NCBI GenBank assembly: GCA_964572145.1
Contig: CAZNES010000005.1
Coordinates: 21,642-85,641 of the forward strand
Length of the DNA stretch: 64,000 nt
Direction: 5' to 3'
DNA from: an uncultured Syntrophobacteraceae bacterium
GTDB taxonomy: Bacteria; Desulfobacterota; Binatia; UBA9968
In this document: piece by piece, positions 1-11,614 of the stretch
Numbering within the stretch: the stretch's first letter is position 1
Layout of the letters: each line of letters opens with the position of its first letter
The notes under the pieces: generated by a model
Told to the model about the DNA's origin: nothing
The model's input: only the letters and a program-made list of their open reading frames with translations
The model's database searches: none
Made by a program: the position numbers and the translations under genes

Positions 1-789
1 GCTGCCGAATTTTTCGCCAAGCGCTGGATCGACGCGGAGATCCGTAAAGGAAAACGGGGCGGCGCTTTTTGCGCGTCGCCTTCGCCGAAACTCCATCCTT
101 ACATCCTCTGCAACTACACCGACAATTTGCGCGACGTGATGACGGTCGCGCACGAGCTCGGCCACGGCCTTCACGGGTGCTTGAGCCGCAGGCAGAGTTT
201 TTTCAACTACGATACGCCGCTCACGACGGCGGAGACCGCATCGGTCTTCGGCGAAATGCTGGTTTTCGATTATCTGGTCGAGCGCCAGACCGATTCTCGG
301 GTCCAGGTCGCGCTCATTGCCGGCAAGCTCGAAGACATCTTCGCCACCGTCTTCCGCCAAAACGTCCTGACGCGTTTCGAAGAAGCGGTGTTCTCGAAGC
401 GCCGCGCGGGAAGACTGACGCCTGAAGCGATCGGCGATCTTTGGATGGGAGCCAATAAGCCCTACTATGGAAACGCAGTCGAGATGCCCGACGGATACCG
501 CTGGGGCTGGTCCTACATCCCACACTTCATCCACAGCCGCTTCTACTGCTACAGCTACGTCTTCGGCCAGCTTTTAGTTTTGGCTCTTTATCGGTTGTAC
601 CGCGAGCAGGGAAAAAGTTTTGTCGCGAAATATCTCGCGCTGCTCGAAGCCGGCGGGTCCGATAGCCCGGAGGCGCTGCTCAAGCCATTAGGCGTCGATA
701 CTCGTGATCCAAAATTTTGGCAGAAGGGATTTGAAGAAATCAGGGGGCTGGTGAAGAGGTTGGAAGGGCTGGTGGAAAAAGGCCGATAG
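1..789 (+). CDS. M3-family oligoendopeptidase F-like metallopeptidase (C-terminal part; 5' end lies outside the window)
   Basis: Frame 1 is open from base 1 (AAEFFAKRWIDAEIRKGKRGGAFC...) into ORF 127..789. Zinc HExxH motif is present in 'VAHELGHGLH'. Confidence 0.85.
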   Translation, partial: AAEFFAKRWIDAEIRKGKRGGAFCASPSPKLHPYILCNYTDNLRDVMTVAHELGHGLHGCLSRRQSFFNYDTPLTTAETASVFGEMLVFDYLVERQTDSRVQVALIAGKLEDIFATVFRQNVLTRFEEAVFSKRRAGRLTPEAIGDLWMGANKPYYGNAVEMPDGYRWGWSYIPHFIHSRFYCYSYVFGQLLVLALYRLYREQGKSFVAKYLALLEAGGSDSPEALLKPLGVDTRDPKFWQKGFEEIRGLVKRLEGLVEKGR

Positions 790-801
790 TCAAACGCTGC
801 G

Positions 802-1617
802 TTAGTCAGGATTCTCTGAAAGCTTGCCTTGTATTCCCAGCCAGTTAGCCAGTGCCCGTTCGGCGACGCTGTCGTGAATGAAATACGCCCCACGGTTGAA
901 TGACCCGCGATCGGAGATCAATCCCTTCCGTGGCATATGGTCGACGCCCCAATAACTCTGTCCCCGCAGTGTGATTACAAGCGCTGAACCAGCCTTTGCT
1001 CTCGTAACGATTTCTGTAGTTACAAATTTGACTACTGCCTGAGCGGATGGCAGAGCGTCAACGACACGCGGAGGAATGCGCCATCTTCGAGAGTGGTATG
1101 GGACAAGCTCGATGACCGCCAAACGCTTCGCCAGATAAGACAATGCAGCTTGGTAAGTTTTTAGGTTTTTTTCCCGCTGAATTGCCTTTACGAAGCGCCA
1201 CAACCTGCTCTCCCAATAACCAAAGCCTCCATGCCATGAAAAAGCTGGATTAAGCCAAGGAAATGGGTAAGGAGTGTCCGCCAGCTGCTGCTTAAGGTTC
1301 CGCATCAGAACGGATCTCACAAGCGGAACCTCACGTTCCCCAAAGTAGTCGTGTGCTCCGAATCCAGGATTAAGCTGCAGCAGGAAGATGTTAGCCCTGG
1401 TGATGTCACCTATATAGGGAAGGGGTAGCAGGTCAGCGAATAACGCATCTTCATCTTCCAACAAATACTTGCTGCGTGTAAACTGGCGGTAAGAACCACA
1501 CATAACGCAGTCCACGTTATGCTCTTTAAGAACCTCGCGGTCTCTCGGGAAAAAGAACGGCGGTTCTCCCGAAGCCACTTTGGTCCATTGTCGGGCCAGA
1601 GATCTTAAGGCATACAT
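802..1617 (-). CDS. Hypothetical protein (271 aa), lower GC than the bulk genome; possible UDG-superfamily-like fold (inference only)
   Basis: Long ORF that starts 11 nt after the stop of the duplicated amidohydrolase fragment. Motifs are 'ANIFLLQLNPGFG' and 'AVIELVPYHS'. No family recognised with certainty. Confidence 0.55.
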   Translation of the reverse strand: MYALRSLARQWTKVASGEPPFFFPRDREVLKEHNVDCVMCGSYRQFTRSKYLLEDEDALFADLLPLPYIGDITRANIFLLQLNPGFGAHDYFGEREVPLVRSVLMRNLKQQLADTPYPFPWLNPAFSWHGGFGYWESRLWRFVKAIQREKNLKTYQAALSYLAKRLAVIELVPYHSRRWRIPPRVVDALPSAQAVVKFVTTEIVTRAKAGSALVITLRGQSYWGVDHMPRKGLISDRGSFNRGAYFIHDSVAERALANWLGIQGKLSENPD

Positions 1618-1628
1618 TTTGATTCGAT

Positions 1629-1762
1629 CTACTTCATCCTAAACGCCGGTGGCATGACTTCATCCACGCTCTTTCCCGTCCAGTGCCATTTAGGAACGCT
1701 GTCCCAGACTGCTCGCCTTTGGCTTGAACTTTTTCCAGCAGCTCGTCTTCGTTGAGACGTAG
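1629..1762 (-). pseudogene. Orphan, frameshifted duplicate of the last ~134 nt of amidohydrolase gene 4455..5897
   Basis: Hand alignment to 4455..4589 gives 13 substitutions and one 1-nt deletion. It encodes ...VWDSVPKWHWTGKSVDEVMPPAFRMK*, versus ...VWDSVSKWHWTGKSVDEVVPPAFRMK* in the intact gene. Confidence 0.85.
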
Positions 1763-1795
1763 AGCGATTATCCCGTACGCAATCGCGGTTTCCAC

Positions 1796-2746
1796 TCAAT
1801 ACGGTCCAAGGAAACGCTTGCCATTGAAGTGAATCATGTGGTCCGGGGCGTTCGCTACCCAGACTTCGGTCTCCCACGCAATTTCCCCGAGGTACTTCAA
1901 GAACCCACGACGATCGAGAAATGCCGTCACGAACACCAGGCCTGCTTTACTACCGGCGAATAGCGCTTTCAATTCAGTGAGACGCTTCGGGTTCACCGGG
2001 CCGTGACTCGTTACTGCTTCAATGAGAACCAGCCAGTTCTTTTCGGTGAAATGCACGACCACATCCGGCATCTTGCCGTGCTCCTCGACGGCAACACCAA
2101 GGTCTCGTAGATAAGCGCCATCGAAGTAGGCCCATTTTTTGTGCGTATCGCCGACGTATATGGGCTTGCCGCAAGGAGTAAAGCGCGGACAAAACTCGTT
2201 GATAATTTTGCGTATGAGAGCGTTCTGACCGCCGGGCGATAACCTGATTGCGACACCTGGCGCGAGATCGAGCGGAATATATTGCATGTCACGCACTTGA
2301 GCATATCGCAGTGCGAGCGTTCCGAGGTCCGCTATGTAATGCCGGAGAGCGGTGTTCCACTTGGGCGTGCCAGATTCTCGAATGACGGCTATCGTCCGGG
2401 GTTCAACCTGGTAACAATATTTCGGGCTGTTTGTCGGGCGATCGGGCTGGTCAGGATTGGCCACAATCAGTCCGGCTTGCTCAAACTGGTGCAGCGTGAA
2501 TCTCCGCACGGTTTCACGCGTGTTCGGCGCCCACTTCTTCTGATAATGCTTAGCTACGAACTCCATAATCGGTGTTACGCCTCGGAGCGGATCGCTTGAT
2601 GCGGTCCAAGGCTTCTGCGGCGGCAGATCAAGGAGGGCGAGAAGGGTCAGGGCCGCTCGTTCGTTTCGTTGCTCCGGTGGAAGGCCAAAAGCAATTAGAA
2701 TTTTCTGTGCCTCGGCGATGCGTCGCTTTCGTTGGTTAGCCATCAA
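1796..2746 (-). CDS. Type II restriction endonuclease, BsuBI/PstI family-like
   Basis: N-terminus 'KILIAFGLPPEQRNERAALTLLALLDL' and C-terminal 'MPDVVVHFTEKNWLVLIEAVTSHGPV' resemble BsuBI/PstI-family enzymes as I recall them. There is a 4-nt ATGA overlap with the upstream methyltransferase gene. Confidence 0.75.
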   Translation of the reverse strand: MMANQRKRRIAEAQKILIAFGLPPEQRNERAALTLLALLDLPPQKPWTASSDPLRGVTPIMEFVAKHYQKKWAPNTRETVRRFTLHQFEQAGLIVANPDQPDRPTNSPKYCYQVEPRTIAVIRESGTPKWNTALRHYIADLGTLALRYAQVRDMQYIPLDLAPGVAIRLSPGGQNALIRKIINEFCPRFTPCGKPIYVGDTHKKWAYFDGAYLRDLGVAVEEHGKMPDVVVHFTEKNWLVLIEAVTSHGPVNPKRLTELKALFAGSKAGLVFVTAFLDRRGFLKYLGEIAWETEVWVANAPDHMIHFNGKRFLGPY

Positions 2747-4356
2747 ATCGCCTGGAGGACTTCTGTCACGAGTGCATCGAGAGCGCCTTGAGCCGGAAAA
2801 GTTCCTTCTAGGCGTCGTCCGAGCGTAACCAGAGTTTCTCTTGTCGGATAGCGCAGTGCCCGAAGGTCAGTAGCATTGACTTGCGTGTGTCCGTTGAACT
2901 GCCGGAAATAGGTGTCGAGTGCAGAGCAATTCAGGAATCCCGAAAGACCGCGTGCTAGAGTTCGCTCTAATGGTGCCCCCCGTTCGTGGAAGTAGTTGAG
3001 ATGGTTCTCGAAACCCACGACTTCACAGGGAACATTGTCAGGATCAAAGACGGCTGCCACGAGCCGGCGACGCTCCTCCTTTGCCGAGAATCGTCTCACA
3101 AGCACATACACTCCCGCAGGTACCATGAGTGATGCGCTGTCGGTATTATGCACGATTGCGTTAGGTTTTTTTGCCCCCAATCTCGGCCAGCAGATAAGAC
3201 CATTACTGAAGTGGGTTGAATAGATCAGAGGAACAGTTCCCGAGGTCGGTTCTGCCCGCAGCCACTGGCGGGCGCGGAAGTCCACAACACGCCCGGTGCT
3301 CACGCACAACCTCAGTTCGTCAAGCGTGCATGGGAGCTTCTCCATAGCCTCAGCAAGCGCATGACCATCGTCGTCTGGAACGAGGTGAATAAATGCTTGT
3401 GAGTCGCCGGGTCGCACGACATGCTCGAAAGGCACATTTCGTTGCGCCCCGGTCGGATGGTCGGGCGTGCGGCTCTGTGAGATACATACGAGGGGTTGCT
3501 GCGGCACACCTTTAAGCGCATGAAGAATCAAATTTTCTTGTAATACTTTGTCGTCTCGAAATGCGTAGTCGCGATCCTCAAAGACGTGAAGGCGCGTGAT
3601 ATTTACGTGTCGCAGTAAATGTTGCCTGAAAGGCCGGAAATATGGGCCATTGCAAAAACTCCTTGGTGTAATGGCGATCAGCTCCCCCTTTTTATCTAAC
3701 AGCAATACTGCGAGTGCCATAAAAGCCGTATAAAGATTGCTTGTCTCGATATTGAGTCGGCGCAGGAGTTGGCGAGTCCGCGACTCAGTTCGGAACTTTT
3801 TGTAGGGCGGATTAAGGATGGCGATATCAAATAGGGGATGTTCGGTCCGAAACAGTCCCGTTTCCAGGACGTCCACAGAGGCTTCGATGAAATCAGTCGC
3901 TCGCACTTCCCATTTGCATGTGATCTCTACCGCTGCGCATGCCTCTTCGCATGCCCTTAACGTTCGCTGTAGAGCGGGTAGCAGGGCTTCGTCCCGTTCA
4001 TAAGCCGTCAGGGTGACTTCCCTAGGGCGGGCTGGTCTTGAACAGATTTCAGCGACCCATGCCGCCGTCAATGCTCCGACTCCCGCGCCGGCATCTAGCA
4101 AGCGGATGCGTTCACGACAAGCTGTGCTCATGGAACCCATGAGTCGCGCAGTTGCAGGGGGAGTGAAGTATTGGCCATACTCGCTACGTCGAGCCGAATC
4201 CAATATGGCGCTCAGTTTCTGTCTGGCTTCCTCTGCTGTCCCTAATGGGTCAGGGATCGTAAGCCGTCGGCTTGGGGGTGAGTCGGGATCAGTAGCACGT
4301 CTTGAGCGGGCCTTCGGTGTAGATATCTGTGATCTATGGGTGTGTTTAGACTCCAC
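2743..4356 (-). CDS. N6-adenine DNA methyltransferase (gamma class, Eco57I/M.PstI-like)
   Basis: SAM-binding motif 'LLDAGAGVGALT' precedes the catalytic motif 'ILNPPYKKF'. Also carries 'YGQYFTPP'. At 537 aa it is paired with the endonuclease gene. Confidence 0.88.
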   Translation of the reverse strand: MESKHTHRSQISTPKARSRRATDPDSPPSRRLTIPDPLGTAEEARQKLSAILDSARRSEYGQYFTPPATARLMGSMSTACRERIRLLDAGAGVGALTAAWVAEICSRPARPREVTLTAYERDEALLPALQRTLRACEEACAAVEITCKWEVRATDFIEASVDVLETGLFRTEHPLFDIAILNPPYKKFRTESRTRQLLRRLNIETSNLYTAFMALAVLLLDKKGELIAITPRSFCNGPYFRPFRQHLLRHVNITRLHVFEDRDYAFRDDKVLQENLILHALKGVPQQPLVCISQSRTPDHPTGAQRNVPFEHVVRPGDSQAFIHLVPDDDGHALAEAMEKLPCTLDELRLCVSTGRVVDFRARQWLRAEPTSGTVPLIYSTHFSNGLICWPRLGAKKPNAIVHNTDSASLMVPAGVYVLVRRFSAKEERRRLVAAVFDPDNVPCEVVGFENHLNYFHERGAPLERTLARGLSGFLNCSALDTYFRQFNGHTQVNATDLRALRYPTRETLVTLGRRLEGTFPAQGALDALVTEVLQAI

Positions 4357-4454
4357 TGAAATTCAGCTTATCTTATAAAAGATGCTGCTTTCAACGCAGA
4401 AATCGTTTCCAAGCTCTTGTCCATGAAGTGCCAAGCAATTTAATGACAGGAAGG

Positions 4455-5897
4455 TTACTTCATCCTAAACGCCGGTGGCACCACTTCGTCAACGCTCTTG
4501 CCCGTCCAGTGCCATTTGGACACGCTGTCCCAGACCTGCTCGCCCTTAGCCTGAACTTTTTCCAGCAGGTCGTCTTCGTTGAGACGCAGATATTTGCCGT
4601 TATCTACCAGCGTCTCGCCGTCCACGATCACAGTGCGCACGTCGCGGCTGACGGCGGTTTCGACCAGCGATCTGATCGGGTCGCGTACGGCGCCGAAGGC
4701 GATGTCTTTAAGATTGATGATCGCGATGTCCGCCTTTGCGCCTTTCTGTAATCGGCCCAAGTCGTCTCTGCCGATGAGTTTCGCGCCGCCGAGCGTCGCT
4801 GCGTTGAAGACGTCGCGCGGGTGGCCGGCAACAAAACTTTTCTCCGCCACTCGCGAAGCAAGCGATGCGTAGCGCATATCCGAAATAATATCCTTGGGAA
4901 AAGTATCGGTGCCGATGCCCATGTTGACGCCGGCCTTCAAATATTTGTCGAACGATTCCATCACGATGCCGAGCTTCAAATATTTGAGCGGGCTATAGGC
5001 AACCGACGCGCCGGAGTCGGCGATGATTTTGAGGTCGTCTCCATAAGGGTAAGACAGCCAGCTATGGCCGCTGATGAAGATGCAGTGAGAGAGAGAAACT
5101 TCTGGATCGAGAAAGCCGATCTTATCCAACAGCTCGATCGGCGTGCAGCGTTCGCGCTGCATCACGGTATGGAATTCGAACAGGTTGATCGTCGCGTGAA
5201 TCTGCGCGCGCGCGCCGATCTCTTTGGCGGCCTTTCGAGTTTCTTTCAAAAGCGCAGGCGTGCACGAGTCCACGTGGCCGGGAAAGAGCATCGTCTTCAT
5301 CCGCCCGTTGCAGCCGCCGTCGAATTTTTTCGCGAACTCGACGGCGTGCTTCAATCCTTCACTTCCACGCTCGTCGTTCCAGTCGTACTCCAACCTTCCT
5401 TCGCGGTCTTGAAAGAAGTTGACGTTTTTATAGCTCGGCCCCGCATAGCAGCGGATTCCGACCTCGTCCACCATCGCGACGTAAGGCTCGGGATTTGCGC
5501 CGGCGCCGCCGATATCCAGTGTCGTGGTGACGCCGCTCTTTAAGACGTGGATCAGCGAAAAGCGCTGGCCGATATCCACGTCCTTCAAGTGGGCGTGTTT
5601 CGCGCCTTCGCGCGTCGGCGCGCCGTGAGCGAGATAGTTGGCCGCGAAGTAGTCCAGCTTGTTCGCGTCATTCAGTAGATAATCGCTCGCGTTGATGCCC
5701 GAATGAAAATGGGTATCGATAAATCCCGGCGAGACGAGGCAGCCTTTGGCATCGATCTTTTTGTCCACCGGCTCGGAATATTGTTTGCCGACGAATGAAA
5801 CCCGATCGTTTTCAAAGACCACAACGCCGTCTTTGATGATTTCGTGCTCTTGTCCATTGAAGCCGACAGCATATCCGCCTTGAATCAAAGTTTTCAA
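4455..5897 (-). CDS. Amidohydrolase-family metallohydrolase (chlorohydrolase/deaminase-like)
   Basis: 480 aa with N-terminal 'SPGFIDTHFHSG' (HxH metal motif) and typical amidohydrolase_1 architecture. Confidence 0.85.
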   Translation of the reverse strand: MKTLIQGGYAVGFNGQEHEIIKDGVVVFENDRVSFVGKQYSEPVDKKIDAKGCLVSPGFIDTHFHSGINASDYLLNDANKLDYFAANYLAHGAPTREGAKHAHLKDVDIGQRFSLIHVLKSGVTTTLDIGGAGANPEPYVAMVDEVGIRCYAGPSYKNVNFFQDREGRLEYDWNDERGSEGLKHAVEFAKKFDGGCNGRMKTMLFPGHVDSCTPALLKETRKAAKEIGARAQIHATINLFEFHTVMQRERCTPIELLDKIGFLDPEVSLSHCIFISGHSWLSYPYGDDLKIIADSGASVAYSPLKYLKLGIVMESFDKYLKAGVNMGIGTDTFPKDIISDMRYASLASRVAEKSFVAGHPRDVFNAATLGGAKLIGRDDLGRLQKGAKADIAIINLKDIAFGAVRDPIRSLVETAVSRDVRTVIVDGETLVDNGKYLRLNEDDLLEKVQAKGEQVWDSVSKWHWTGKSVDEVVPPAFRMK

Positions 5898-6136
5898 GAT
5901 TATGGCCTTTCTTTGAAAATATTTACGAAGCGAGAAGTAGCAAATTGGTCCAGGTAAGACAAGTTACTCCTGCCCTCTCCAGTGCAGGTTCTTTGTCGAT
6001 TCTGACAGATTTTGTACAACAACTGTAATAGGGAACGAGGGAGGAAGCGCAAAGTAAGCATGAAAACTGGCTATTCCCGATAGCATCTTTTTGGGCGTAG
6101 TTTTTGCTTAGGACAAACTCTAGAGGTCACGATTCG

Positions 6137-6649
6137 ATGGCAAAATCGGGTTTCCTTGTTCCGTTTGCAGCCTTTATCTTCTTCGCAGTTACATCCTATG
6201 CTGAGCCGAATCTGCCGGGTCCATATCGTGCTACGGTTATCTCCGTAGTTGACGGCGACACTGTAAAGGTAGAGGTACAAATTTGGCTTGGGCTTTATCA
6301 GAAAGTGAAGGTTAGGATTGCAGGGATTGATGCGCCAGAGATTACTAAGCCAAAGTGCACCAAAGAAAAGGAGCTTGGACTAAAAGCAAAGGAGTTTCTC
6401 GAAAGCGTGATTCCTCAGCAATCGACGATCAACTTAACCCAAATCAGTGAGGATGAATTCGGTGGCCGAGTAGATGCTACTATCCAAACAAAGGATGGCA
6501 AGGACGTCGGCGAGCTACTACGAAGCGAAGGTCATGCCTCTCCTTACAAAAAGCGCGGGATGAAAAAGGACTGGTGCGGCCCAGAGAGCCGCGAGGAACA
6601 AGTGTCTCAGAGTAAGCCTCGTCGGGATGTAGCAGTAGATAGTCAGTAG
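6137..6649 (+). CDS. Secreted thermonuclease (staphylococcal nuclease/SNase homologue)
   Basis: Signal-peptide-like 'MAKSGFLVPFAAFIFFAVTSYA'. SNase motifs 'VVDGDTVKV' and 'RIAGIDAPE' are present. Low-GC segment. An alternative upstream start exists at 6104. Confidence 0.8.
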   Translation: MAKSGFLVPFAAFIFFAVTSYAEPNLPGPYRATVISVVDGDTVKVEVQIWLGLYQKVKVRIAGIDAPEITKPKCTKEKELGLKAKEFLESVIPQQSTINLTQISEDEFGGRVDATIQTKDGKDVGELLRSEGHASPYKKRGMKKDWCGPESREEQVSQSKPRRDVAVDSQ

Positions 6650-6653
6650 ATGC

Positions 6654-7613
6654 CTACCTGTAAATTCCTTGCTTTGCCCAATTGATGTAGTGTTCCACAC
6701 CGCGAAAGGGATCGTAGTCCGGAGTGAAGCCGGTCTCTTCGCTGAGCCGCGAGATATCGACGCAGGCGTTGATGTCCATGGGAGTCTTGGTCGAGATCAA
6801 CGGTCCCGGGCCGTCGCCCAGATGGATCTCGGTTTTCGGCAGCCATTTTTTAATCGCGTCGGCAAACTCGGAGAGGCTGACCAGCCTGCCGAAACCGAGA
6901 TTATAAATTCGATGCCGGAGAGTTTTCGCCCTGAGCAGGAGCATAACTCCGCGCGCGGCATCTTTGGCATAGATGATGTCATGGGCTTCGGCCGGGTCCT
7001 GATTCCCCAGTTCGACAGGGATACCTTTGGCCGCGTTTTCCACCATGTGACCGGCAAGGTTCCGTACTCCCTGATAGAGCGGACCGTACATCCGGGTAGC
7101 CCGTGCCGAAATAACCTCCATGCCGTATTCCTTGCAGTACATGAGACAGAGAATTTCGCCCGCCTTTTTGGTTCCGGGAATAAAGCGGTCGGAGGTGATG
7201 AGGAGCTTCTCCTCTTCTTTGTAAGGCTGAGTAGTCTTCAGTCCCTGATACACCGCTTCAGAACTGATAAAAATCACTCTCTTAATCTCCGCTATCCGAG
7301 CGGCTTCGAGCACATTGATGGTTCCCGTGACGTTCACATCCATCGCTTGATACAGCGACGTGTTTCCTTTCTCCGAGCGCACCGCCGCGTGCACGATGCC
7401 CGTAACGGCGAAGTCCTTGATCGCTTGTGAAACTTTTTCCAGAGACGTGATGTCGAGCGGGATAATCTTGAGCAACCGATCGACAAATGAGGAAAGCAGC
7501 GTAGGGACGACGGTGTTGCGATTGCTCGTTGCCAGCACGGCTTCTCCGGAATCGCAAAGAAGCCGCGCGAGGTTGGCTCCTAAAAACCCCAGCCCGCCGG
7601 TGATTAAGATCAT
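6654..7613 (-). CDS. NAD-dependent epimerase/dehydratase (extended SDR)
   Basis: N-terminal Rossmann motif 'ILITGGLGFLGANL'; 319 aa. Confidence 0.85.
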   Translation of the reverse strand: MILITGGLGFLGANLARLLCDSGEAVLATSNRNTVVPTLLSSFVDRLLKIIPLDITSLEKVSQAIKDFAVTGIVHAAVRSEKGNTSLYQAMDVNVTGTINVLEAARIAEIKRVIFISSEAVYQGLKTTQPYKEEEKLLITSDRFIPGTKKAGEILCLMYCKEYGMEVISARATRMYGPLYQGVRNLAGHMVENAAKGIPVELGNQDPAEAHDIIYAKDAARGVMLLLRAKTLRHRIYNLGFGRLVSLSEFADAIKKWLPKTEIHLGDGPGPLISTKTPMDINACVDISRLSEETGFTPDYDPFRGVEHYINWAKQGIYR

Positions 7614-7803
7614 GGATGGACTTTAACCGACCGTTGAAAAAAGCTCATCTGCTATCCGTCCAACCGGGAGTCTCTCTCCGAGCCGATGCGATATATTTGT
7701 GTTACGCTGAACGAGCAATGCCGAGAGTATCGCCGCGCTACGCTTGATTTTTCTCGTCCCACGCATCGGCTCTCCGAGAAACCCCCAGTTGGACAGTTGC
7801 GGG

Positions 7804-8913
7804 TTACAAACGAATCAGCTCGTCGCCGACGCGGTTCAGCCGCCGGTTTCCTTTTTCCGTCGTGAGATAGGTCTCTCCCCAGAGCAAGGAACTTTCTCCC
7901 AGCAGCGGCCAGGGGTGGACGATGAAGACCATGCCGGGAACGATCTCCGTCTCGTTCTGCGGCGATGGGCGGTCTTCGACCATGTCGAGGCCGACGATGT
8001 GGCCGTAGACCGGCGTGCAGTCGAGACCGGACTGTCGCACGTATTCCTCCATCGCGCTCATCGGCTTGGACACTTTGAATCCGGGCTTCAAGTATTTCAG
8101 CGCTTCTTTGATCGCCCGCACCGAGACCTCGTGGAGCTTGACCAGATCTGGGTCCGGTTTACCGAGAGAAACGGCACGCGCCAACTGTGTCCAGTAGCCG
8201 CCGTACTGGGCCGTGATCTCGACGAAGACCATGCCTTTCTTTCCGATCTTCCTGCCAGACGGCGGATAGGCATCGACCTTGGGACCTTGTGAAATGATGT
8301 TGAAGCTCTTTTCCACGCCGTGACTCTTGAGCAGGAAATCCATATAAGCGACGATCTCCCATTCGGTCTTGCCCGGTTTGATGCGCTTGATTCCTTCGGT
8401 AAAGGCGAGGTCGACGAGGGCGGCGGATTTTTTCACTAGGCGGGTCTCTTCGCCGTCCACCGTCGCCCGCAGTTTTTTTAACGCCGGACCGAATTCGACG
8501 ATTTTCAGTTCGGGAAAAAATTCTTCCATTCTCTGGACCCAGAGAAAGGGGAGCCTGTCCAAGCCGTCGATCCCGACCGATGAACGTACCAGCCCCTTTT
8601 CTTTCAATACTTCCATCAGGCTTTCGAGGAAGCGCGAGCTCAGGCGGATGTCTTCGAGCCATGAATTTTTTTTCGCCCGCATCGCCTGGAAGCGCGATTC
8701 CACAAGCATGAGCGGAGGCTTTTCTTCGTCGCGGAAGAATACAAGGACGAGCGGGATATTGATATTGGGAAAATCGGTGAGAAAGCGAAACGCCGCGCCG
8801 TCGCCGCGGACGGCGCTGGAGCCGCGCGCGATCATCGCGTCGAGGCCCTGCGCGGCCATTCGCTCGCGCACCGCGCGATAGCGCGTTTCTTTTACTTTAT
8901 CGGAAAGAAACAT
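7804..8913 (-). CDS. M24-family Xaa-Pro peptidase/creatinase-like protein
   Basis: 369 aa with a creatinase/prolidase-type N-terminal domain followed by a pita-bread-fold C-terminal region ('YGHIVGLDMVEDRP', 'GMVFIVHP'). Confidence 0.78.
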   Translation of the reverse strand: MFLSDKVKETRYRAVRERMAAQGLDAMIARGSSAVRGDGAAFRFLTDFPNINIPLVLVFFRDEEKPPLMLVESRFQAMRAKKNSWLEDIRLSSRFLESLMEVLKEKGLVRSSVGIDGLDRLPFLWVQRMEEFFPELKIVEFGPALKKLRATVDGEETRLVKKSAALVDLAFTEGIKRIKPGKTEWEIVAYMDFLLKSHGVEKSFNIISQGPKVDAYPPSGRKIGKKGMVFVEITAQYGGYWTQLARAVSLGKPDPDLVKLHEVSVRAIKEALKYLKPGFKVSKPMSAMEEYVRQSGLDCTPVYGHIVGLDMVEDRPSPQNETEIVPGMVFIVHPWPLLGESSLLWGETYLTTEKGNRRLNRVGDELIRL

Positions 8914-8933
8914 TAGCGTGGGCCCTCCGATTT

Positions 8934-9350
8934 CTAGCGGCTCTGCAGCACTTGTCCGGCCAGGTTCGTCACCTTGTCTACTCGGATGACGACGGCGGCG
9001 CCCTTGCGCTCCGGGTCCTTGTCAATCTCCTCCTTGACGGTTCGGGACATGACCTGCTCGCGGATAAGCCCGTCCTGGTGCACTGTCGCCACGCCGTGGA
9101 AGCGGAAGTTGAGCCTGGTTTTCGGATCCCTGAAGAGCACGACGACCTTCGAATTCTCCAGGACGTTTTTCAGATGCTGCCGTCTCGTGCGCTCCCAGTA
9201 GGCGAGAGACTCGTTGTCAAAGACCATCATGCTGCCCTTGTAGCCGATGTCCGGCTCGCCGTCCTTGGAGACAGTGGCGAGGACGCATGGGCAGCCGTTC
9301 GCCAGCGCGTTGTCGATCAATTCGGGGATTTTGTCCGTTAGAGCAATCAT
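8934..9350 (-). CDS. Pyridoxamine 5'-phosphate oxidase-family FMN-binding protein
   Basis: 138 aa. The 'CVLATVSKDGEPDIGYKGSMMVFD' pattern is typical of the PNPOx-like split-barrel family. Confidence 0.7.
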   Translation of the reverse strand: MIALTDKIPELIDNALANGCPCVLATVSKDGEPDIGYKGSMMVFDNESLAYWERTRRQHLKNVLENSKVVVLFRDPKTRLNFRFHGVATVHQDGLIREQVMSRTVKEEIDKDPERKGAAVVIRVDKVTNLAGQVLQSR

Positions 9351-9386
9351 GGTTCCAACCTCCTTGCTATTTTTCTAGCGCTATTT

Positions 9387-10058
9387 TTACACCGGCCATT
9401 TTTCCAGGCGATACGCCTGGTCCCAAAAAAGAAACTCGTAGCGGCTGCTCAGCATAAAATGAGAACGCATAAGCTTTCTCTCTTCGCTTCCCGCGCCCGC
9501 GCCGAGGCGGTCCATCAACCGTATCTGCTCCCGCACCGGTTTCCAATACTCCTCTGACGCGTAAATCTCGATCCACTCGCGGTAGATCGCCGGCTTTCTC
9601 GTCCGCCTGCGATAGAGTCTCCTTCCGACCTCGCCGTAAATCCAGTAGCAGGGTAGCACCGCAGCGACGATTTCCGCCAGGCTCCCTCCTCGGGCGACCG
9701 CCTGAAGATGTTTCGTGTACGCTTCTGTGACCGGCGCTTTGGGCGTCCGGTCGAGCTGCCGCTGCGAGAGGCCGAGACTCTTTCCAAAGCTCGCGTGAAA
9801 ACTTCTTTCCACCTCGACGGCGATCAGAGCATGGCGGGCGAAGATTTCCAGAGTTTTTAGATCCGGCGATTTCGCTCCGCCGAGGCAGAGGACCTGGGCG
9901 AAATCGAGGAGGTAAACGTAGTCTTGCAATATAAAATAGACAAACCGATCCATGGGCAGAGTGCCGGCGCGAAGCTCGTCGAGAAAGGGATGGGCGTGAA
10001 TGGCGCGCCAGATTTTATCCGCCTCGCGTCGCAACTGTCGTGTGAAAAGTCCAGCCAT
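9387..10058 (-). CDS. tenA: TenA/thiaminase II family protein
   Basis: 'HPFLDELRAGTLPMDRFVYFILQDYVYL' is typical of the TenA/PqqC family; 223 aa. Confidence 0.8.
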   Translation of the reverse strand: MAGLFTRQLRREADKIWRAIHAHPFLDELRAGTLPMDRFVYFILQDYVYLLDFAQVLCLGGAKSPDLKTLEIFARHALIAVEVERSFHASFGKSLGLSQRQLDRTPKAPVTEAYTKHLQAVARGGSLAEIVAAVLPCYWIYGEVGRRLYRRRTRKPAIYREWIEIYASEEYWKPVREQIRLMDRLGAGAGSEERKLMRSHFMLSSRYEFLFWDQAYRLEKWPV

Positions 10059-10222
10059 TGGGCGCCGCCGAATTTCCTTTCATTCCCCGGAAAAGCGCGC
10101 GTAAATTTCTCGTCTACCGCTGCTTGCAGTTTGAGCGAATTCTTTCTATAACATAGCCGCATCGGGTTGTCACTTTATCGCCGCGACGAAAAATTTAGCT
10201 CGACGAAACGGAAGGAACGGCA

Positions 10223-10690
10223 ATGAATAAAAAAGTTCGCATGCGCGTCAACGGCAAGAAGATCGAGCAAGAAGTTCCCACGAACCGTCTGATGATCGAT
10301 TTTCTGCGCTACGATCTCGGGCTCACCGGGACCAAGGAGGGTTGCAGTGTCGGCGTCTGCGGCGCGTGCACGGTGCTGATGGACGGGGAGATGATTAGCT
10401 CCTGTCTTGCACCCGCGGTGTTCGCCGACGGCCACGACATCACCACGGTCGAGGGGTTGGCAAAAAACGGCGAGCTCCATCCGGTGCAAAAAAGCTTCAT
10501 CAAGTACGGCGGCTTCCAGTGCGGCATCTGCACGCCGGGCCAGGTCGTTGCGGCCAAGGCGCTGCTCGACAAAGTTCCCAAGCCGAACGAGGAGCAGATC
10601 AAAGACTGGATGATGGGCAATCTCTGCCGCTGCACCGGCTACTACAAAATCATCGAATCGATTCAAAAAGCGCATCAGTTTGCGAGATAA
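10223..10690 (+). CDS. (2Fe-2S)-binding small subunit of a xanthine dehydrogenase/CO dehydrogenase-family molybdoenzyme (CoxS-like)
   Basis: 'GCSVGVCGACTVLMDG' and 'FQCGICTPGQV...CRCTGY' cysteine clusters. Confidence 0.9.
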   Translation: MNKKVRMRVNGKKIEQEVPTNRLMIDFLRYDLGLTGTKEGCSVGVCGACTVLMDGEMISSCLAPAVFADGHDITTVEGLAKNGELHPVQKSFIKYGGFQCGICTPGQVVAAKALLDKVPKPNEEQIKDWMMGNLCRCTGYYKIIESIQKAHQFAR

Positions 10691-10699
10691 GGACCCATC

Positions 10700-11614
10700 A
10701 TGCAGCCCTTTGAATATCGCACTCCAAAGAGTCTTAAAGAAGTTCAACAAGACCTCAAACAGTTCGGCACGGACGCGAAACTCATCGCCGGCGGCACGGC
10801 TCTGGTCATCATGATGAAGCAGCGCCTGGTGAGTCCCACCTGCCTAATTAGCTTGCGTTCGGTGCGCGGCCTGAGCGGCATCGAGGAAAAGAACGGCGAG
10901 CTTCGCATCGGCGGGGCGACGACTCATCGAGAGGTGGAGACCTCCTCGCTGGTGCGCCGGCGCTTGCCGCTCCTGGCCGAGACCTACCGGCACGTGGCCA
11001 CCGTTCGCGTGCGTAACATGGCGACGGTGGGCGGCGGGCTGGCGCACGCCGACCCCAATCAAGATCCTCCTCCGACTCTCATCGCGCTGGGCGCGAGCGT
11101 TAAGGTCGGATCGGCCGACGACGGCCGGACGATTCTGCTGGAAGAATTGTTTACCGACTATTACGAGACCGTGCTCAAGCCGGACGAGGTGATCACGGAA
11201 TTATCCGTTCCGCGCTTGCCGCCGAACAGCGGCGCTGCCTTTCTTAAATTTCTTCCGCGCACGGCGGATGACTATGCGACCGTCTCCGCCGCGGCCGTGG
11301 TGACGTTGGACCGTACCAAGAAGATTTTCTCCGATGTCCGCATTGCTCTCGGCAGCGTCGGCACGACGCCCATTCGCGCGCGCGCCGCCGAAGCGGTGTT
11401 GCGCGGCCAGCCGGTCAAGGCCGAAGCGCTCCGCGAGGCCGCCGAAAAAGCCAAGCAAGCGGTCGATCCGATCGGCGATTTTCGCGGCTCTGCGGCTTAT
11501 AAAAAAGAGATGGCCGGCGTCTTCGTTCGCCGCGCGCTGGAAAAAGCGCTGGAAGGAATCGCGAAAATTGCTAAGGCGGCGCCGAGCCGTCCGGTGAAAC
11601 TGGGGCGGAGATGA
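10700..11614 (+). CDS. FAD-binding medium subunit (CoxM-like)
   Basis: 304 aa with 'AKLIAGGTALVIMMKQR' and a C-terminal CO-dehydrogenase flavoprotein domain pattern ('DPIGDFRGSAAYKKEM'). Confidence 0.85.
   Translation: MQPFEYRTPKSLKEVQQDLKQFGTDAKLIAGGTALVIMMKQRLVSPTCLISLRSVRGLSGIEEKNGELRIGGATTHREVETSSLVRRRLPLLAETYRHVATVRVRNMATVGGGLAHADPNQDPPPTLIALGASVKVGSADDGRTILLEELFTDYYETVLKPDEVITELSVPRLPPNSGAAFLKFLPRTADDYATVSAAAVVTLDRTKKIFSDVRIALGSVGTTPIRARAAEAVLRGQPVKAEALREAAEKAKQAVDPIGDFRGSAAYKKEMAGVFVRRALEKALEGIAKIAKAAPSRPVKLGRR

Follow-up and report, generated by a model that had tools for sequence, protein, structure and literature searches.

A restriction-modification pair between diverged copies of an amidohydrolase gene end in Candidatus Binatia: probable homology arms for cassette exchange

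Background

Variable chromosomal regions flanked by core genes are said to act as integration and defence hotspots, and Oliveira, Touchon and Rocha reportedly attributed their turnover, in 2017, to homologous recombination in the flanks. Foreign DNA can reportedly also be added to a bacterial chromosome with one homologous anchor and without a recombinase, a process that de Vries and Wackernagel are said to have treated in 2002 as homology-facilitated illegitimate recombination.

The closest described systems are restriction-modification (R-M) insertions with long target duplication (Nobusato et al. 2000, as cited as reference 37 of Furuta, Abe and Kobayashi 2010, PMC2853133). By that account, R-M systems with long target duplications and no mobility gene have been catalogued since 2000. 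The 2010 survey defines them by R and M homologues, an insert below 20 kb, a direct target repeat of more than 30 bp, an empty site and no other mobile-element genes; it offers the mechanism as a hypothesis only, and the repeats of its tabulated cases barely differ from one another or from the target, e.g. 44/46 and 47/47 (PMC2853133). A comparable architecture occurs in fungal mitochondria, where mobile endonuclease ORFs make hybrid genes with a carboxy-terminal duplication, as in Glomus atp6, atp9, cox2 and nad3 (PMC3630166) and in the Allomyces atp6 hybrid gene (Paquin et al. 1994, as cited in PMC3630166). The endonuclease is stated to drive their mobility, and the divergence of the two C-termini from one another is taken as evidence of horizontal origin (PMC3630166).

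Here a PstI/BsuBI-type R-M pair bracketed by two diverged copies of an amidohydrolase gene end is described from a 64-kb window, i.e. the whole stretch of DNA analysed. The host is an uncultured soil bacterium of Candidatus Binatia. We consider it probable that the pair occupies a recombinase-free cargo slot and that the duplicated gene end provides homology arms for cassette exchange. Comparison with related genomes suggests that homologous recombination of the ordinary kind, with no recombinase gene, carries such cassettes from lineage to lineage, and recombination in the arms is what we infer to be the mode of spread.

Architecture of the locus

The following features are referred to throughout (coordinates of the window, strand in brackets):

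1..789 (+), M3 oligoendopeptidase gene, 3' part (Pfam Peptidase_M3, E 3e-31)
802..1617 (-), 271-aa cargo gene, candidate Brig1-like / UDG-fold DNA glycosylase (weak NCBIfam Brig1 match)
1629..1763 (-), LEFT copy, displaced amidohydrolase 3' end (last 44 codons and TAG stop)
1764..1795 (-), probable remnant, now decayed, of the amidohydrolase gene from about -206 to -135, directly after the R stop codon (assigned by three-way comparison)
1796..2746 (-), restriction endonuclease gene (R), BsuBI/PstI/SdaI family, 315-316 aa (Pfam PF17728, PF06616)
2743..4356 (-), gamma-class N6-adenine DNA methyltransferase gene (M), 537-aa ORF (motifs, Pfam Eco57I)
3254..3639 (-), tract in M with near-identity to the L054 cassette (386 nt with 2 mismatches; divergence elsewhere about 11%)
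4357..4454 (-), cassette-specific 98-nt spacer from the amidohydrolase stop codon to M (GC 0.39)
4455..4590 (-), RIGHT copy, 3' end of the intact amidohydrolase gene
4455..5897 (-), amidohydrolase gene, intact, 480 aa, chlorohydrolase family, PRK06151-like (Pfam Amidohydro_1; NCBIfam NF004801, E 3e-129)

The R product contains PF17728 (BsuBI_PstI_RE_N, HTH; E about 1e-48 to 1e-47) and PF06616 (BsuBI_PstI_RE; E 2e-60), and has full-length matches to the PADLOC REase_II model and to SdaI (2ixs, E 7.5e-71). The M product possesses the motifs DAGAGVG and, further on, NPPY, and matches PADLOC MTase_II PDLC03227 over residues 37-534; its true start may lie slightly downstream of the ORF start. The PstI/BsuBI-type identity given in the original prediction is borne out by both Pfam domains, SdaI and the two motifs. 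To judge from its sequence, the cognate adenine methyltransferase, which adjoins R, appears intact. The M/R junction, earlier described as an ATGA overlap, actually reads TTGATG, with either TGA and ATG sharing 1 nt or a TTG start sharing 4 nt. Against L054 and L051, the two related loci with the same cassette, R has a dN/dS of 0.10-0.14; the value for M is 0.15-0.18. Of the visibly lower GC content once attributed to the pair, the contrast at third codon positions is clear (0.52-0.60 in the R-M region vs 0.67-0.73 in core genes), but total GC is only slightly low (0.546 vs a window mean of 0.572, sd 0.021). If active, the enzyme would be predicted to recognise CTGCAG or, if SdaI-like, CCTGCAGG. 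CTGCAG occurs 12 times in the window vs 17.8 expected, which is uninformative as a footprint of activity.

The amidohydrolase gene forms the left-hand flank and the homology anchor, with orthologues (78-95% aa identity) in 125 Binatia-type loci. On the right the hotspot is bounded by the conserved M3 peptidase gene, which is convergent with the amidohydrolase gene. Between the LEFT copy and the peptidase gene lies the Brig1-like gene, 12 nt from the former at its start and 12 nt from the latter at its end. Its match to the Brig1 NCBIfam model (E 6e-6) is far under the model cutoff; the AlphaFold2 model (mean pLDDT 90.5) has uracil-DNA glycosylases as best PDB folds, weakly (E 0.1-1, TM 0.27-0.38). 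GC3 of the gene is 0.52. Its 21 protein homologues are all at most 63% identical except for the window's own, and the gene is absent from 125 of 125 related loci. The 98-nt spacer on the other side of the pair is colinear with L054 and L051, where it follows an amidohydrolase end too, and R-M homologues in unrelated loci do not possess it.

No tRNA gene was found in the 64-kb window, no Pfam match to an integrase or transposase among the genes neighbouring the R-M pair, and no inverted repeat flanking the pair, in agreement with the earlier statement that no integrase, transposase or tRNA lies beside the repeats. A scan of 700-6100 for promoters and terminators remained at chance level. All five features by which the 2010 survey defines its class are found at this locus: R and M lie between long direct target repeats in an insert of a few kb, without transposase or integrase, and a related empty site aligns once with the repeat.

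The two copies of the gene end

The direct repeat reported to bracket the R-M pair is real: LEFT and RIGHT are 89.6% identical over 135 nt (blastn, E 2e-47). A repeat search recovers it as D1 (80 nt, 90%) and D2 (55 nt, 91%), with a shift of 1 nt between them. In a local alignment 1630-1763 matches 4456-4590, and base 1629 carries the match through the stop codon (TAG vs TAA). The starts of the copies are 2,826-2,827 nt apart, and the repeat is clearly 134-135 nt long. The 13 substitutions and the 1-nt deletion of the original hand alignment were recovered, the 13 all in sense codons; a further substitution in the stop codon raises the total to 14. The deletion, the only lesion of LEFT, shifts its frame, which argues against a translated small ORF in the amidohydrolase frame.

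Third codon positions hold 12 of the 14 substitutions, and just three change the amino acid in the amidohydrolase frame, the D/E, S/P and V/M listed in the original prediction. With sd 10 and nd 3, dS is 0.52, dN 0.030 and dN/dS 0.057, a pattern that departs from neutrality at P about 2e-5, carried by 134 nt only. In the computed alignment the repeat is significant. Every base state of LEFT is present in at least one of 116 functional orthologues and none is private to it. Among its differing residues E (105/116) and P (75/116) are the commonest states, and M occurs in 6. LEFT should be a recently silenced allele and not an old pseudogene, because all its base states occur in functional orthologues. 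Its dS of 0.52 to RIGHT equals the value for the whole gene when this genome is compared with other lineages at species level (0.41-0.53). Both copies end in the same 25 nt (1630-1654 and 4456-4480).

Each copy is about 89-91% identical to the nearest alleles (L006, L054, L055), neither clearly closer; as donor or recipient allele, no sampled sequence exceeds about 91% identity to LEFT or RIGHT, and exact-protein look-ups matched the same genome only. The proposal that the copies are different alleles, each evolved as coding sequence, and not the product of a fresh in-situ duplication, holds on the codon pattern.

An assembly artefact is ruled out: wherever Logan contigs of three samples overlap the window, their identity to it is 100%, and two of the three independent assemblies, from different samples, span both repeat copies. 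The species is present in samples SRR6155503, SRR6155509 and SRR12685303. A decayed full-length paralogue as source of LEFT is likewise ruled out because all extra fragments among 113 related loci are confined to the last 207-210 nt of the gene.

Related loci

Most relatives have an empty site, in which the amidohydrolase gene abuts the convergent M3 peptidase gene, 17-130 nt from the amidohydrolase stop codon (among others L055, L022, L023, L033, L042 and L045). The peptidase gene of L055 has a dS of 0.12 to the window. Scans of GTDB and JGI yielded no empty site from the same species; the top amidohydrolase match is 95% aa identical. Of the two things that the original prediction had pointed to in relatives, empty sites are thus plentiful, and the donor allele was not found among the sampled alleles.

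The M-R cassette occurs at the same locus in two other Binatia lineages, L051 and L054, i.e. in only 2 of about 125 related loci. Window positions 5896..1630 are colinear with L054 2789..7079 (88%), and 4543..1781 with L051 8198..10966 (87%). The junction directly after the R stop codon is common to the three. In L051, recognisable amidohydrolase sequence begins directly after this stop codon; L054 has a decayed, intermediate version of it, and the 32 nt of the window (1764-1795) align with the start of the L054 version, with about 40 nt deleted. Unrecognisable in the window sequence by itself, the 32 nt would then be the old part of the displaced fragment and the duplication would originally have measured about 206 nt. 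For the boundary at 1763/1764, a homologous crossover of later date is a better interpretation than the insertion point. The earlier view that the pair arrived on foreign homologous DNA keeps its support from the differing alleles and the empty sites; a single recent arrival does not fit the cassette and junction shared with L051 and L054. R-M is missing from nearly all relatives.

Extra amidohydrolase-end fragments are present at 13 of 113 related loci, where the cargo that they surround includes an HNH module and a toxin-antitoxin pair. Fragments measure 34, 46, 82-87, 134, 168 or 202-207 nt. Against their own gene these fragments have pN/pS values of 0.08-0.25, where about 0.5 is expected for in-place decay. 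A p81-HNH module occupies this position in L031, L051, L054, L094, L120 and L121. The R-M family itself gives no support for a long duplication as one of its properties: homologues of about 80% aa identity lie in unrelated loci, where homology of the R-M unit stops exactly at the R stop codon, and L053, the only such locus covered by the repeat scan, has no repeats. The repeat architecture therefore appears, on these sequence comparisons, to belong to the amidohydrolase-peptidase locus and not to the R-M family.

Several traces of exchange are preserved. The tract 3254..3639 marks recent recombination between cassettes of different lineages; its longest exact run shared with L054 is 277 nt vs about 51 nt expected. 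Identity between L054 and L051 is 85.6-86.7% in the backbone, 91.6% in the R-M cassette and 95.9% in the HNH cassette including arms. The R-M and HNH cassettes of these two loci are nested in opposite order, as is expected if each new arrival inserts beside the intact gene. Within L054, the central parts of the functional and the displaced end agree at 117 of 118 positions. Across the locus, dS is mosaic and varies from 0.07 to 1.2; between window and L054 it is 0.07-0.13 in the distal flanks and 0.5-0.9 in the genes adjoining the hotspot. This mosaic ancestry blurs dS dating of cassette against backbone, so that cassette transfer is not cleanly separable from vertical inheritance with repeated allele replacement. 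No clear left-hand crossover breakpoint was found inside the amidohydrolase gene.

With its variable, defence-rich content between two core genes, mosaic ancestry and raised diversity in flanking genes, the locus resembles the known chromosomal defence hotspots. Unlike in these, the flank itself is internally duplicated to give one of the arms, so that both crossovers can fall in one target gene, and successive arrivals leave nested gene-end scars.

Proposed mechanism and alternatives

In the reading that we consider probable, the slot would be a hotspot between the convergent core genes amidohydrolase and M3 peptidase of Candidatus Binatia. In an ancestral event M-R would have entered the amidohydrolase gene about 206 nt before its end, so that the gene end was kept intact upstream and a second, displaced copy of it came to lie directly after the R stop codon. 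The cassette would thereafter carry homology to gene body and end on the left and to the displaced end on the right, and with this two-sided homology, ordinary homologous recombination could carry it into naive alleles of related lineages. At each transfer, the displaced end beyond the crossover would be swapped for the recipient's own, hitherto functional, sequence. In this genome the right-hand crossover would lie at about -135 (window 1763/1764); 1764-1795 would consequently be old and decayed and 1629-1763 a functional allele that was silenced recently and is still joined to the Brig1-like gene, its own neighbour downstream. A mirror-image event, in which the Brig1-like gene and its gene end were imported into an R-M-bearing genome with the crossover placed in the old fragment, would give the same structure. 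Homology-facilitated illegitimate recombination could account for the first event, the illegitimate joint then lying within the gene end of the recipient, but differs in that the later spread at this locus appears to use two-sided homology. Classical target duplication may also describe this first, ancestral event.

The arm model leaves one regularity unexplained: the junctions of three cargo types, HNH, R-M and toxin-antitoxin, cluster in a stretch of about 8 nt (-202 to -210), a hint of some site-specific process or of one ancestral duplication. These junctions are in favour of endonuclease-driven homing, in which p81-HNH would cut a naive amidohydrolase gene about 200 nt from its end and repair would copy cargo and foreign gene end, R-M having hitch-hiked and HNH having been lost here later. 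An HNH cassette adjoins R-M at both other R-M-bearing loci, L051 and L054, and that cassette, taken together with its arms, has 96% identity between lineages that share only 86% in the backbone. The order of gene body, inserted foreign C-terminus, endonuclease cargo and displaced native C-terminus, too, matches that of the fungal mitochondrial mobile ORFs (PMC3630166). Still, we regard homing as unlikely. No HNH or p81 homologue is present in the 64-kb window, the same two-gene HNH module, where it occurs in other taxa and settings, has no convincing duplication at its flanks and so gives no support for long duplication as a property of the module, and fragment breakpoints at -34, -48 and -82 misfit a single cut site. 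The resemblance to the fungal genes has limits as well: the present locus is on a bacterial chromosome, its cargo in the window is a Type II R-M system and not a homing endonuclease, and sampled relatives show no detectably greater similarity to the displaced end than to the in-gene one. Unlike homing-endonuclease hybrid genes, the window contains no endonuclease ORF of homing type between the C-termini, where six relatives have p81-HNH.

Slightly less credible as an account of its own is vertical inheritance with allele replacement, in which cassette and identical repeats came from an ancestor shared with L054 and either the RIGHT gene was overwritten by a diverged allele or LEFT was converted from an imported one. 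The very close distal flanks of window and L054, next to much more diverged genes adjoining the hotspot, agree with it, and L054 demonstrates that two copies can be homogenised within a genome. LEFT, however, must still have been functional, or been copied from a functional allele, very recently, so that foreign homologous import through the repeat would still be required; this account is less a rival of the best explanation than one of its variants.

A classical insertion with long target duplication in this very lineage, with initially identical copies that diverged in place as gene and pseudogene, fits the published definition in its direct repeats of more than 30 bp around R and M, its empty site and its lack of a mobility gene, and is nonetheless very improbable. 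In-place decay predicts about 19 nonsynonymous changes, assuming a neutral pseudogene branch that carries half of the synonymous divergence, and 3 are seen (P about 6e-6); LEFT has no private base state, and the adjacent 32 nt show what real decay at this locus looks like. Published long target duplications differ further in their repeats, which here diverge by 10% with a coding-type pattern (near-identity being typical there and no formal criterion), in that one repeat here is bipartite, with an old decayed and a fresh part, in that the junction is common to three lineages, and in that cargo other than R-M, too, is surrounded by duplicates of this gene end.

Least probable of all is the remnant of a site-specific integrative island, whose attachment site restored the gene end on 3'-end integration and whose integrase was later deleted: direct repeats and insertion at a gene 3' end are typical of integrase-mediated islands and the final 25 nt are identical in both copies, but this identity is expected anyway because the block encodes a highly conserved peptide end, no integrase is found in the window neighbourhood, the L051 gene calls or the ORFs examined at other fragment-bearing loci, the repeats vary from 34 to about 206 nt with no fixed length, and cassettes are nested in either order.

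Conclusions

The locus offers a natural series, with empty sites, one cassette in three lineages, at least two cassette types nested either way and displaced gene ends from near-identical to decayed. It adds a defence-rich hotspot in the little-studied Binatia, comprising R-M, a candidate Brig1-like glycosylase, PDC-S11, toxin-antitoxin pairs and HNH, and it links a bacterial defence hotspot to the architecture of foreign and displaced native C-termini in mitochondrial mobile endonuclease genes. If the duplicated gene end acts as homology arms, a repeat-flanked cassette, once formed, would recombine between lineages as a unit and refresh its own arm. Only tentatively do we extend this to a general scheme, in which the duplicated gene end would form self-renewing arms by which R-M, toxin-antitoxin and HNH cargo cross species by plain homologous recombination, arrivals beside the intact gene would leave nested scars, and the HNH endonuclease may seed the process. 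If true, self-renewing arms would provide a mechanism for the unexplained class of insertions with long target duplication.

Organisation of the restriction-modification locus

The restriction-modification (R-M) pair of the window lies between an intact amidohydrolase gene and a displaced copy of that gene's 3' end. Outward from the amidohydrolase gene, the features are:

4455-5897, minus strand: intact amidohydrolase gene of the chlorohydrolase family, 480 aa (NF004801, E 3e-129; Pfam Amidohydro_1), its end being the right copy of the repeat
4357-4454, minus strand: AT-rich spacer, 98 nt
2743-4356, minus strand: gamma-class N6-adenine methyltransferase gene (M), with DAGAGVG followed by NPPY and PADLOC MTase_II over residues 37-534
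1796-2746, minus strand: BsuBI/PstI/SdaI-family restriction endonuclease gene (R), with both Pfam domains, full-length PADLOC REase_II and a match to SdaI 2ixs (E 7.5e-71)
1629-1763, minus strand: left copy, i.e. the last 44 codons and stop codon of the amidohydrolase
802-1617, minus strand: 271-aa gene, 12 nt beyond the left copy
ending at 789, plus strand: convergent M3 peptidase gene, 12 nt beyond the 271-aa gene

The domain content supports a predicted BsuBI/PstI/SdaI type for the pair. The junction of M and R, given as ATGA in the original prediction, actually reads TTGATG. The lower GC content ascribed to the pair resides mainly at third codon positions (M 0.52, R 0.60 vs core 0.67-0.73) rather than in total GC (0.546 vs 0.572 +/- 0.021). 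CTGCAG occurs 12 times in the window against 17.8 expected, a mildly low and uninformative count. Other palindromes are far below Markov expectation in the whole window, namely CAGCTG (1 vs 13.7), GGATCC (4 vs 14.7), CTCGAG (11 vs 33.4) and GTCGAC (10 vs 29.6), and may be traces left by further restriction systems of the lineage.

As had been claimed, no integrase or transposase is found by Pfam among the called neighbour genes of the pair, and no tRNA gene in the 64-kb window; nor do inverted repeats flank the pair. An assembly artefact is ruled out for the repeat structure, because contigs assembled independently for each of three sequencing runs match the window at 100% wherever they overlap it, and two of them, from different samples, cover both copies.

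The 271-aa gene belongs to a rare family (21 homologues found), has a GC3 of 0.52 and was found in none of the related loci. Its product weakly matches the NCBIfam model of Brig1, an anti-phage DNA glycosylase (E 6e-6, short of the cutoff), and the best PDB fold matches of its confident AlphaFold2 model (pLDDT 90.5), though weak, are uracil-DNA glycosylases; it may be a candidate new Brig1-like defence glycosylase. A staphylococcal-nuclease-like gene (181 aa, 6104-6649, plus strand) just upstream of the amidohydrolase gene has the region's lowest GC3 (0.47). It is present in the window and at the related loci L005 and L008, was not detected in L006, L051 and L054, and is another small indel beside the hotspot, the variable slot between the amidohydrolase and M3 peptidase genes. 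Between the epimerase and M24 peptidase genes lies an inverted repeat of 33 nt (7658-7690 / 7762-7794), its arms 82% complementary and 71 nt apart.

Divergence of the two copies

The predicted gene-end repeat is borne out: blastn aligns the copies at 89.6% identity over 135 nt (E 2e-47), in a local alignment 1630-1763 matches 4456-4590, and a repeat search returns two halves of 90% and 91% identity with a one-base offset. In the amidohydrolase frame the copies differ by 13 sense-codon substitutions and one in the stop codon (TAA vs TAG), 12 of these 14 at third codon positions. The three amino-acid changes noted earlier (D/E, S/P, V/M) and the frameshifting 1-nt deletion of the left copy are both recovered. 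Nei-Gojobori counts are sd = 10 and nd = 3, with dS = 0.52, dN = 0.030 and dN/dS = 0.057. Three or fewer nonsynonymous changes among 13 have P = 2e-5 under neutrality; a left copy that was identical to the right one at insertion and drifted thereafter should have gathered about 19 nonsynonymous changes along its branch (P = 6e-6).

Every base state of the left copy recurs among the ends of 116 functional orthologues; at the three differing residues these ends carry E in 105 and P in 75 (each the commonest state there) and M in 6. About 89 first- and second-position sites are without a novel state, and the left copy has therefore been non-coding for a small fraction of the time separating the alleles. 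The separation of the copies resembles whole-gene dS to species-level lineages (L055 0.41, L005 0.42-0.44, L006 0.53). Codon pattern, lack of private states and lineage-like dS together uphold the earlier view of two alleles, each shaped as coding sequence.

Related loci and empty sites

Scans with the amidohydrolase protein yielded 46 loci in species-representative genomes and 80 in metagenomes, with 78-95% amino acid identity; most of the named genome records bear the label Candidatus Binatia or one of the older 'Deltaproteobacteria' MAG labels. The anticipated empty site exists in many relatives (e.g. L022, L023, L033, L042, L045), where the convergent M3 peptidase gene follows the amidohydrolase gene after 17-130 nt, and also in L055, where the peptidase gene shares 95% identity with that of the window (dS 0.12). 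The slot of other relatives holds 1.5-7 kb of variable DNA, including a dienelactone-hydrolase gene, an epimerase-like gene, membrane proteins, toxin-antitoxin genes (Phd/YefM antitoxin, HTH protein), the PDC-S11 candidate defence gene and the two-gene p81-HNH module.

When window 6654-9350 and flanks are compared with L005, L006, L051, L054 and L055, dS between genomes climbs towards the hotspot. Against L054, distal genes (TENA and PNPOx) have dS of 0.07-0.13 and the three hotspot-side genes 0.5-0.9 (M24 peptidase 0.53, epimerase 0.94, amidohydrolase 0.75). This climb indicates a mosaic ancestry of the locus, shaped by recombination, and diverged flank alleles seem to travel with hotspot content.

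The same cassette in two relatives

The closest homologue of the R protein (93% aa) sits at the same locus of a related genome (127-kb contig L051), and the metagenome contig L054 also carries the M-R pair. The window is colinear with L054 at 88% (5896..1630 / 2789..7079) and with L051 at 87% (4543..1781 / 8198..10966), so all three share one cassette make-up of amidohydrolase end, spacer, M and R. The interpretation first proposed is right in its core, the reading of two coding alleles, but its single arrival is incomplete as a history, given the same cassette at the same locus in both relatives.

Amidohydrolase-derived sequence directly follows the R stop codon in all three, from about -206 to -210 relative to the gene end. 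In L051 it is clearly recognisable, 77% identical to its own gene with indels, and other cargo truncates it at -132; the L054 piece reaches the stop codon, with the first ~60 nt heavily decayed; in the window 32 nt of the first part are left (1764-1795), aligning with the start of the L054 version. From this three-way comparison, 1764-1795, which looks like a spacer separating R from the left copy, is probably an old remnant of an original duplication of ~206 nt. At 1763/1764 decayed sequence switches sharply to allele-quality sequence. Unrelated loci have R-M homologues at about 72-77% nt identity, which align with the window between about 4177-4255 and 1796-1800, so that the unit able to transfer stops exactly at the R stop codon. 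L053, the single unrelated R-M locus scanned for repeats, has no long flanking repeats.

Recurrent gene-end fragments

Extra same-strand fragments of the locus's own amidohydrolase end occur in 13 of the 113 related loci with enough downstream sequence, all within the last 207 nt. Fragments at other loci show pN/pS of 0.08-0.25 to their own gene, with one exception that has few changes; ~0.5 is expected if one copy decayed in place. At L097 (3561-4393) and L098 (8443-9275), a BrnT-like toxin gene followed by a small ORF, both recognised by eye, separates the amidohydrolase gene from a 168-nt fragment 95-98% identical to the functional end, seemingly a recent event of this type in which a toxin-antitoxin pair was the cargo. 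L010 and L048 have short fragments, 34 and 46 nt long, between other cargo. In L010 the 34-nt piece parts two diverged paralogues (4436-7269) that stand in tandem and encode a membrane protein of 450 aa, single-copy in L046 and L063, the latter looking like the same sequence as L046.

The p81-HNH module, genes for an 81-aa protein and a 148-aa HNH endonuclease, is conserved directly after the amidohydrolase gene in many Binatia loci (L051 7491-8166, L054 7197-7869; further L020, L031, L037, L082, L094, L116, L120, L121 and L124), often trailed by a displaced gene-end fragment. The fragment starts at -202 in L020, L031, L094, L120 and L121, and at -82 to -87 in L051 and L054. Homologues of the HNH protein number >2,700; in three other contexts examined, a comparable pair of small ORF and HNH gene has no obvious flanking duplication.

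Both cassettes are nested in L054 (gene / M-R / fragment / p81-HNH / fragment) and L051 (gene / p81-HNH / fragment / M-R / fragment), and the fragment behind the inner cassette bears the upstream arm and the spacer that belong to the outer one. Such nesting would be expected if each newcomer inserts at the intact gene, so that earlier cassettes are displaced outward. For L054 versus L051, backbone identity is 85.6-86.7%, that of the R-M cassette 91.6% and that of the HNH cassette with arms 95.9%; the cassettes, being closer than the backbone, therefore moved between lineages after the lineage split. Recombination within cassettes is directly visible, to judge from a 386-nt tract of M with 2 mismatches between window and L054 (~11% divergence elsewhere) and from the functional and displaced ends of L054, 117/118 identical in the centre.

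Origin of the repeat

Arm-mediated homologous recombination is the most likely mechanism. A cassette between a gene and a displaced gene end would match a naive allele at either end, ordinary homologous recombination would install this two-arm cassette into a related genome, and the displaced end past the right-hand crossover would be the recipient's own former coding end. Such a transfer would explain why the left fragment is bipartite, why the copies show coding-type divergence and why the left copy is continuous with the gene downstream of it. A mirror event, import of the 271-aa gene and its gene end into an R-M-bearing genome with a crossover in the old fragment, would leave the same product. 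It is indistinguishable from R-M import, because each copy is ~90% identical to all sampled alleles and no left-hand breakpoint is visible.

HNH-driven homing is a live rival. Against it, neither an HNH nor a p81 gene is present in the 64-kb window, and the module as it occurs in other taxa is without convincing flanking duplication. Hybrid genes that mobile endonuclease ORFs create in fungal mitochondria consist of an inserted foreign C-terminus, the mobile ORF and the displaced native C-terminus, an order matching that of the window (PMC3630166, citing Paquin et al. 1994). There, however, a homing endonuclease does the work. The junctions of three cargo types, within about 8 nt of each other (-202 to -210), suggest one ancestral duplication followed by cargo swapping, or else a preferred break site. 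An integrase island is rejected, with no recombinase seen among the called neighbours of the window, in the L051 gene calls or in ORFs examined at other fragment-bearing loci, and with varying repeat lengths and cassettes nested in either order.

Relation to known R-M insertions

'R-M insertion with long target duplication' is defined by R and M, an insert <20 kb, a repeat >30 bp, an empty site and the absence of mobility genes; no mechanism is established for this class, in which the repeats tabulated so far are near-identical to each other (Furuta et al. 2010, PMC2853133). The window structure has all five features, but its repeats are diverged alleles. The locus is thus a real and well-supported example of a known, mechanistically unexplained class. 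A general recombinase-free cassette system, possibly endonuclease-seeded, is a tentative and rather doubtful extension. For this locus, the comparative evidence shows the repeat as what appear to be reusable homology arms in a multi-cargo slot.
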